A stretch of 64,000 nucleotides of DNA. Source: Escherichia coli (GTDB lineage: Bacteria; Pseudomonadota; Gammaproteobacteria; Enterobacterales; Enterobacteriaceae). The notes beneath the pieces were generated by a model. That model worked only from the letters and a program-made list of their open reading frames with translations, was not told where the DNA came from and did not search any database. The translations under genes were made by a program, and so were the position numbers. Positions within the stretch are counted from its first letter, which is position 1. Every line of letters begins with the position of its first letter. The stretch lies in NCBI RefSeq assembly GCF_013315695.1, contig NZ_CP054353.1; one strand, 5' to 3'. Shown here piece by piece: positions 39,190-39,365 of this stretch.

Positions 39190-39365
39190 CCTTTGCGGCA
39201 TCGGGCAATGCGTGTCGGATGCGGCGTGAACGCCTTATCCGACCTACGGTTCTACTCCTGTGTAGGCCTGATAAGACGCGCCAGCGTCGCATCAGGCAAC
39301 GACTGTCGGATGCGGCGTGAACGCCTTATCTGTACCAGATAAGACGCGTTAGTATCGCATCAGGC
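39190..39365. repeat. REP/BIME cluster (multiple REP palindromic units)
   Basis: Repeated units of the type GCCGGATGCGGCGTGAACGCCTTATCCGACCTAC and GCCTGATGCGACGCTGGCGCGTCTTATCAGGCCTACA in alternating orientation. Confidence 0.85.

Follow-up and report, generated by a model that had tools for sequence, protein, structure and literature searches.

The palindromic sequences flagged at three sites in a 64-kb stretch of Escherichia coli DNA (64,000 nucleotides in full; hereafter, the window) are genuine copies of the known E. coli REP hairpin repeat, and ordinary ones. Judged from its units and their layout, the site between cvpA and dedD (site 1) is a BIME-2 array of four units in alternating orientation within the putative 3' UTR of dedD; the sites downstream of fabB (site 2) and between mnmC and yfcL (site 3) carry one unit each. 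We assign a probability of about 85% to the reading that members of the REP family at all three sites, forming a BIME-2 at site 1, would serve as context-dependent modulators of the 3' UTR. In view of published work on other REPs, this appears to be their most likely function.

A preliminary description of the window had placed REP clusters of alternating orientation at three operon boundaries. REPs were found at all three, whereas clustering and alternation (Y+, Z2-, Y+, Z2-) are confined to site 1. The ranges given there also had to be narrowed. Within 39190-39365, the four units occupy 39214-39365, and 39190-39213 is a junction remnant and not REP. Within 48670-48735, the REP lies at 48696-48731; an inverted second REP at 48670-48695 was considered and rejected, as the resemblance of that segment to REPs in local alignment is not significant (shuffle p = 0.33). 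The REP/BIME identity, described as expected genome furniture, was borne out by the consensus matches, a naRNA4 score above the gathering score and the genome-wide dispersal described below. The gene names used (cvpA, dedD, fabB and mnmC) agree with the transferred RefSeq annotation, and the boundary context holds as well: the dedD stop is accompanied by a terminator-like hairpin and a PurR box, the fabB stop by a T-run hairpin, and mnmC and yfcL are convergent.

Genomic context

An 801-nt stretch around site 1 shares 100% identity with NZ_OZ547117.1 (E. coli AF3, isolated from blood) and with three further genomes, and about 95-97% identity with most others. The gene coordinates in Table 1 are the RefSeq annotation of NZ_OZ547117.1 carried over to window positions. 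No RefSeq gene is annotated across any of the three REP-bearing spacers. In the K-12 RefSeq record, the corresponding 18-kb stretch contains CDS features only and zero repeat_region features, and the RepRanger supplements hold zero entries for dedD, fabB, mnmC, yfcL and yfbR. The spacers of K-12 and other strains were compared with the window directly, sequence against sequence.

Table 1. Positions of the genes, REP units and accompanying elements in the window
Feature	Position	Strand	Description
purF	37006-38523	-	RefSeq transfer
cvpA	38560-39048	-	RefSeq transfer
Predicted PurR operator ahead of cvpA	39105-39120	-	exact ACGCAAACGTTTTCTT; 0.06 expected by chance
Terminator-like hairpin with T-tract	39141-39178	-	12 pairs, tail TTTATTGATG; downstream of the array, at the folC-dedD transcript end
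REP-head-like junction remnant	39196-39213		GCATCGGGCAA; repeated directly as GCATCAGGCAA in the heads of the Z2 units
REP-1, Y type	39214-39247	+	GTCGGATGCGGCGTGAACGCCTTATCCGACCTAC; CTAC tail intact; 2 mismatches to the published consensus
Tail-to-tail linker, short (S-type), 14 nt	39248-39261		between REP-1 and REP-2
REP-2, Z2 type	39262-39297	-	0 mismatches to the Z2 consensus; GTAG intact
Head-to-head linker, 7 nt (aacgact)	39298-39304		naRNA4 linker with a 6-nt deletion
REP-3 (Y'), Y type	39305-39338	+	6 mismatches, all in the tail; tail CCGACCTAC replaced
REP-4 (Z2'), apparently degenerate Z2 type	39330-39365	-	9 mismatches; GTAC for GTAG, 3 loop changes
dedD	39375-40037	-	RefSeq transfer
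folC	40027-41295	-	RefSeq transfer
yfcJ	47295-48473	-	RefSeq transfer
11-bp hairpin AAAAGGGAACC/GGTTCCCTTTT amid A/T runs	48637-48662		fold of 48630-48740 (-); bidirectional terminator-like, after the fabB REP
Site 2 single REP	48696-48731	+	5 mismatches to Z2; Y-like arms, Z2-like loop; exact tail motif
fabB	48738-49958	-	RefSeq transfer
mnmC	50117-52123	+	RefSeq transfer
Site 3 single atypical REP hairpin	52141-52172		scan match 52138-52175; 6-7 mismatches to Y in either orientation
yfcL	52179-52457	-	RefSeq transfer

Identification of the REP units

Both strands of the 64-kb window were scanned by full-length Hamming distance with two consensus sequences at a cut-off of <=9 mismatches. The Z2 consensus used was the one that we take to be that of the family, and it was afterwards matched exactly by REP-2. 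The other was a published REP consensus, GCCGGATGCGGCGTGAACGCCTTATCCGGCCTAC, common to 224 of 356 K-12 REP elements and quoted in PMC12306157. In agreement with the preliminary description, the scan recovered six units with 0-9 mismatches, and its matches within the window are confined to the three flagged sites. On average, 100 first-order Markov shuffles of the window gave 0.01 matches at <=9 mismatches. The window has three exact copies of the tail motif CTTATCMGRCCTAC, against 0.59 expected. A strict 37-nt degenerate Stern-type pattern with a fixed 5-nt loop spacing gave no match at <=3 mismatches because it accommodated neither the loop length nor the GTCGGAT arm variant.

The GTAG/CTAC tetranucleotide is present in REP-1, REP-2 and the fabB REP and is missing from REP-3, REP-4 (GTAC) and the site 3 unit; the latter three are what we regard as degenerate members of the family. 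In the predicted folds of REP-1, REP-2 and the fabB REP, the internal loop of the stem lies at its expected place. All REP units are extragenic, in CDS-free spacers, at 6-17 nt from stop codons, a placing near gene 3' ends that is typical of REPs. The idea that the three sites hold chance GC-rich palindromes or ordinary intrinsic terminators in place of REPs could appeal to the site 2 hairpin, with its z of only -1.7 in isolation, and to the site 3 unit without GTAG, and it can be dismissed: mismatches of 0-7 to a consensus of 34-36 nt against 0.01 expected matches refute chance palindromes, no T-tract follows the REP stems, distinct terminator-like hairpins adjoin the REPs, and the orthologous alleles of site 3 are canonical Y or Y+Z2 REPs.

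The Rfam model naRNA4 (RF02564) matched 39265-39336 on the minus strand with 65.1 bits (gathering score, 59.5), and gave sub-threshold scores of 40.3 bits at site 2 and 32.6 bits at site 3. This match mirrors nothing but the similarity of REP pairs, the model being the Y/Z2 pair of REP325. When the 166-nt array of site 1 was searched by megablast, it was found at 112,468 places, distributed over 5,425 of the 5,426 complete E. coli genomes (median 18 and maximum 39 places per genome), a count that is a lower bound because megablast needs exact words of 28 nt. Among the matches listed for this array, nearly all are unannotated.

A further REP-related sequence, missing from the preliminary description, was observed at 14776-14808 between the convergent yfbR and yfbS. 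This palindrome, GCGTCGCATCAGGC-aataagc-GCCGGATGCGAC, consists of two facing REP "heads" without the rest of the units, and it matches the first 14 nt of the Z2 consensus (0/1000 shuffles). A 301-nt query containing it aligned over its entire length in 19 of 20 matches listed, and at least 80% of this query was covered in 5,424 genomes. The hisJ-hisQ spacer (34202-34290), a classic place for REPs, contains a hairpin and no REP in this strain.

Structure of the cvpA-dedD array

Site 1 was designated a BIME-2 because z2 and y units joined by a short linker occur there in tandem, in a copy number that depends on the strain (definition of PMC3333891). On the minus strand, the dedD stop is followed by 9 nt, REP-4/REP-3, a linker, REP-2, a linker, REP-1, the remnant, the terminator-like hairpin, the PurR box and cvpA. 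The array is thereby set between the dedD stop (39377-39375), 9 nt past which REP-4 starts on the mRNA strand, and the terminator-like hairpin, which appears in both the MFE and centroid folds, and it lies upstream of the predicted PurR-controlled promoter of cvpA-purF-ubiX. The operator sequence is the one that we take to be known from purF regulation; it was then matched exactly upstream of cvpA.

REP-1 and REP-2 are predicted to fold into classical bulged hairpins, with energies of -19.4 kcal/mol (z = -4.1) and -22.1 kcal/mol (z = -4.4), respectively; REP-2 corresponds to the second hairpin of the naRNA4 match and REP-3 to the first. The linker of 14 nt has no room for an IHF site, in contrast to the long (L) linker of BIME-1, which contains one. 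In the second pair, the tail-to-tail linker is wholly deleted, and REP-3 and REP-4 overlap by 9 nt. We call this pair "collapsed": 23 nt are gone, comprising the linker and both tails with GTAG/CTAC. Its predicted fold is a single long hairpin with a perfect 12-bp core, CGCCTTATCTG-TAC-CAGATAAGACG (inverted repeat I5), at -24.1 kcal/mol (z = -3.6). The 238-nt dedD 3' UTR as a whole has a predicted energy of -99.2 kcal/mol against -70.2 +/- 4.6 in shuffles (z = -6.35), which was equalled by 0 of 200 shuffles.

The remnant is not significant by itself when aligned with the REP consensus (p = 0.19), and its region gave a weak naRNA4 match at 39188-39244 (36 bits). A longer direct repeat (D1) pairs 39198-39239 with 39289-39330 at 90% identity. 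Tandem Repeats Finder reported nothing at site 1 because fewer than two full 91-nt copies are left once the second unit has collapsed. Two mechanical open reading frames of 56 and 51 aa run through the array on the plus strand (39150-39342) where RefSeq has no CDS; in all likelihood the GC-rich repeat has produced them as artefacts, and they should not be called genes.

Alleles of the array among strains

The cvpA-dedD spacer was extracted from 12 other genomes (Table 2), and an evenly spaced sample of 60 records was taken for its length. The 258-nt allele is the commonest (35/60 sampled records). The series spans 0-8 REPs, or 0, 1, 1.5, 2, 3 and 4 units of 91 nt, in agreement with the published observation that the copy number of a BIME-2 at one locus differs among strains (PMC3333891).

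Table 2. Alleles of the cvpA-dedD spacer
Spacer length	Content	Source
167 nt	no REP; empty site ...GCGGCATCGGGCAA/GACCGTA (slash, junction)	RIVM_C037166
235 nt	collapsed pair alone	EC476, 98218
258 nt	Y-Z2	K-12, GPEC1042, MRSN346638
314 nt	Y-Z2-Y	FDAARGOS_1257
326 nt	Y-Z2-Y'-Z2'	window
329 nt	truncated Y, then Z2-Y-Z2	CUVET16-465
349 nt	two full units	TOK-001
440 nt	three units	JJ1886
531 nt	four units, 8 REPs	UTI89

The direct repeat GCATCGGGCAA/GCATCAGGCAA flanks the 91-nt repeating unit and accounts for the gain and loss of units as well as for the precise empty site. In the empty allele (locus positions 150-316 of RIVM_C037166), the junction lies exactly at the GCATCGGGCAA repeat; the whole BIME is therefore dispensable and precisely removable. 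All the non-empty alleles examined retain the Z2 unit next to the dedD stop, at the same distance of 9 nt.

The collapsed pair is found in 133 of 5,426 genomes, invariably at the cvpA-dedD locus, and the exact 326-nt allele of the window in four of them. Because its right flank, GACCATA, is that of the 235-nt lineage, the window allele resembles this lineage plus one canonical unit. The extra unit looks like a gain via either unequal recombination or BIME amplification, two routes that are indistinguishable here. As for the collapsed pair itself, a clean deletion at TnpA_REP sites (C/T join) was considered and rejected, since the observed junction, CTTATCTGTACCAGATAAG, mismatches the prediction; two or more deletions, together with substitutions, would be required to produce the pair. 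One could imagine that the 326-nt allele records a recent BIME event on the 235-nt lineage and that the series then acts as a graded dial on DedD and on read-through into cvpA-purF-ubiX, an idea that we consider improbable.

The fabB and mnmC-yfcL units

On the fabB mRNA strand, the REP of site 2 starts 10 nt past the stop (48738-48740) and runs from GTAG into the hairpin, which in isolation is not unusually stable against shuffles (z = -1.7). The terminator pattern scan did not call the 11-bp hairpin at 48637-48662 because its T-run is absorbed into the stem. The fabB locus of K-12 has the same single REP as the window. Next to the REP tail lies a 9-nt tandem repeat, CTACTCCGA, which is present once in the window, twice in KW21 and up to five times in AH25; these copies, orthologous to window positions 48720-48737, constitute a small VNTR that separates the REP from the stop codon of fabB.

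The hairpin of site 3 sits within the 55-nt spacer separating the convergent mnmC (stop 52121-52123) and yfcL (stop 52179-52181), at 17 nt from the former stop and 6 nt from the latter. Its local alignment score is 45 against a shuffle maximum of 23, and its folds have energies of -23.5 and -24.7 kcal/mol (z = -3.5 and -4.1). The orientation of the unit is ambiguous because GTAG/CTAC is absent. Among 40 sampled rows, 35 have a 120-nt spacer; in K-12, as in most strains, this spacer has a Y+Z2 pair, and the single unit belongs to a minority of strains. Compared with the canonical single-Y allele of CDE2901, the unit in the window has four substitutions, all of which fall in the two bulge dinucleotides (GC/TT to AT/GC), and its flanks are mostly conserved, with a few substitutions upstream. 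The swapped bulge hints at a template-switch or quasipalindrome-type event.

Proposed function and alternatives

As 3'-UTR modulators, the REP hairpins would be transcribed within the upstream mRNA and act locally and in a context-dependent manner. They would block 3'-to-5' exonucleases, forming a barrier to decay, and would partly attenuate read-through into the next transcription unit. A first hairpin at <=15 nt past the stop, as at dedD (9 nt), fabB (10 nt) and yfcL (6 nt), might in addition stall terminating ribosomes. At site 1, the copy number would shift by unequal recombination or slippage among the 91-nt units or by TnpA_REP-mediated processing. Transcribed REPs have been reported to block exonucleases and to cause partial, partly Rho-dependent attenuation, depending on context (bioRxiv 10.64898/2026.03.23.713779). 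REPs at <16 nt from a stop can lower translation, according to the part of PMC12306157 that cites Liang et al. 2015; dedD, fabB and yfcL have such a spacing, and mnmC (17 nt) does not. The preliminary description had called the clusters mRNA-stability elements, a label that stems from the literature and not from the sequence of these loci, and that is not supported here; REP effects are reported to be context-dependent, and REP-containing genes to show no general difference in half-life (bioRxiv 10.64898/2026.03.23.713779). The lack of such a general difference speaks against 3'-UTR modulation. So do the empty site and the unconstrained unit number (0 to 8 REPs), which point to an array that this locus can spare and that is perhaps neutral here, and the site 2 hairpin, by itself no stabler than shuffled sequences (z = -1.7).

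A strong rival is that the units are neutral or selfish, non-autonomous REP/REPIN-like DNA, spread and amplified by the single-copy TnpA_REP (RAYT) or by recombination, with no host function here, and that they would persist at gene ends just because an insertion does no harm in such places. It agrees with the empty-site allele and the range of 0-8 copies, with the presence of units lacking GTAG, and with the cleavage and recombination by TnpA_REP in vitro and the model of BIME amplification derived from it (PMC3333891, PMC8266576). The substrates of TnpA_REP are GTAG-bearing, bulged REPs, and BIMEs were recombined in vitro (PMC3333891, PMC8266576); lacking GTAG, REP-3, REP-4 and the site 3 unit are probably not substrates (PMC8266576). 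However, the stop-proximal Z2 and the 9-nt spacing from dedD are constant in the non-empty alleles examined, and well-conserved REPs show genome-wide expression biases (bioRxiv 10.64898/2026.03.23.713779). We regard neutrality as possible, though short of probable, and it is not exclusive of 3'-UTR modulation.

Rather unlikely, in our estimation, is that site 1 acts independently of transcription as a strong binding and cleavage site of DNA gyrase, possibly in cruciform, for the control of local supercoiling between the two transcription units. The site fits the definition of a BIME-2 (y and z2, short linker, tandem), and some BIME-2s are enriched in gyrase cleavage sites, with a preference for y REPs (PMC6379681). 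Nevertheless, only a subset of BIME-2s is cleaved, dedD and cvpA occur zero times in the main text of that paper, sites 2 and 3 are single units and not BIMEs, and the empty allele shows that the site is dispensable.

That the array encodes a naRNA4-like nucleoid-associated ncRNA, which together with HU would bridge REP cruciforms and compact the chromosome, is highly improbable. Such a model has been published (PMC4550694), and the Rfam score exceeds the gathering score; yet the Rfam model is a plain Y/Z2 REP pair that any BIME-2 matches, and REP325/naRNA4 is without measurable nucleoid compaction, with REP-REP contacts undetected (bioRxiv 10.64898/2026.03.23.713779).

The finding is real but ordinary and known in kind, and inter-strain polymorphism of BIME-2 copy number is already published. 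E. coli REP/BIME elements have been catalogued since 1984. The palindromic, ORF-free sequence of the three spacers is now fully accounted for by REPs. Mildly notable is the broad variation in copy number at site 1 from strain to strain, with an empty site and a rare collapsed-unit allele. The cvpA-dedD spacer is a clean natural allele series (empty, 1-4 units and collapsed) suited to probing current ideas on REPs as tunable 3'-UTR regulators.

Other features of the window

Three further observations were made elsewhere in the window. A two-gene Septu anti-phage defence system lies at 57531-59532 (+) between smrB and a yfc-like fimbrial operon; PtuA (452 aa) and PtuB (219 aa, HNH) matched PADLOC with E = 4e-168 and 4e-95, respectively, and RefSeq labels the two genes just 'AAA family ATPase' and 'HNH endonuclease family protein'. 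The cis-regulatory nuoG RNA of Rfam (RF01748) was found at 5474-5516 (-), between nuoG and nuoF, with 50.3 bits against a gathering score of 33. At 27962-30615 (-), genes for an nhaC-type Na+/H+ antiporter and a 'trans-sulfuration enzyme family' protein are situated between yfcH and rpnB; K-12 presumably has no genes between yfcH and rpnB (yfcI), and the segment may be a strain-variable insert.

Comparison with known systems

The REPINs of Pseudomonas and their RAYT (PMC3116915, PMC3337134) resemble site 1 in being inverted REP doublets, with a single-copy domesticated Y1 transposase as the presumed mobiliser. They differ from it in that the REPs of the window belong to E. coli group 2, with a bulged stem, and in that the window contains no RAYT gene. 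Solitary REPs, which account for 84 of 584 REPs in K-12 (PMC3333891), are the counterparts of sites 2 and 3, being single imperfect palindromes within 6-17 nt of stops. Unlike these, the site 3 unit is missing GTAG and has a swapped bulge, and most strains have a Y+Z2 pair in its place.

REP325 is a 12-unit Y/Z2 array between yjdM and yjdN. It shares with site 1 the layout of the Y/Z2 pair (as naRNA4) and the position in a 3' UTR between tandem genes, whereas the array of the window, at another locus, has 4 units in place of 12 and a linker that is shorter by 6 nt.

In contrast to the described BIME-2, the second unit of the window is collapsed, being 23 nt shorter with three substitutions in the z2 loop and one predicted hairpin. 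In all other respects compared, site 1 is like a BIME-2 (PMC3333891): y and z2 in inverse orientation, linkers of 14 nt and 7 nt, a tandem unit of 91 nt, and a copy number that depends on the strain, here ranging from 1 to 4 units in addition to the empty site.
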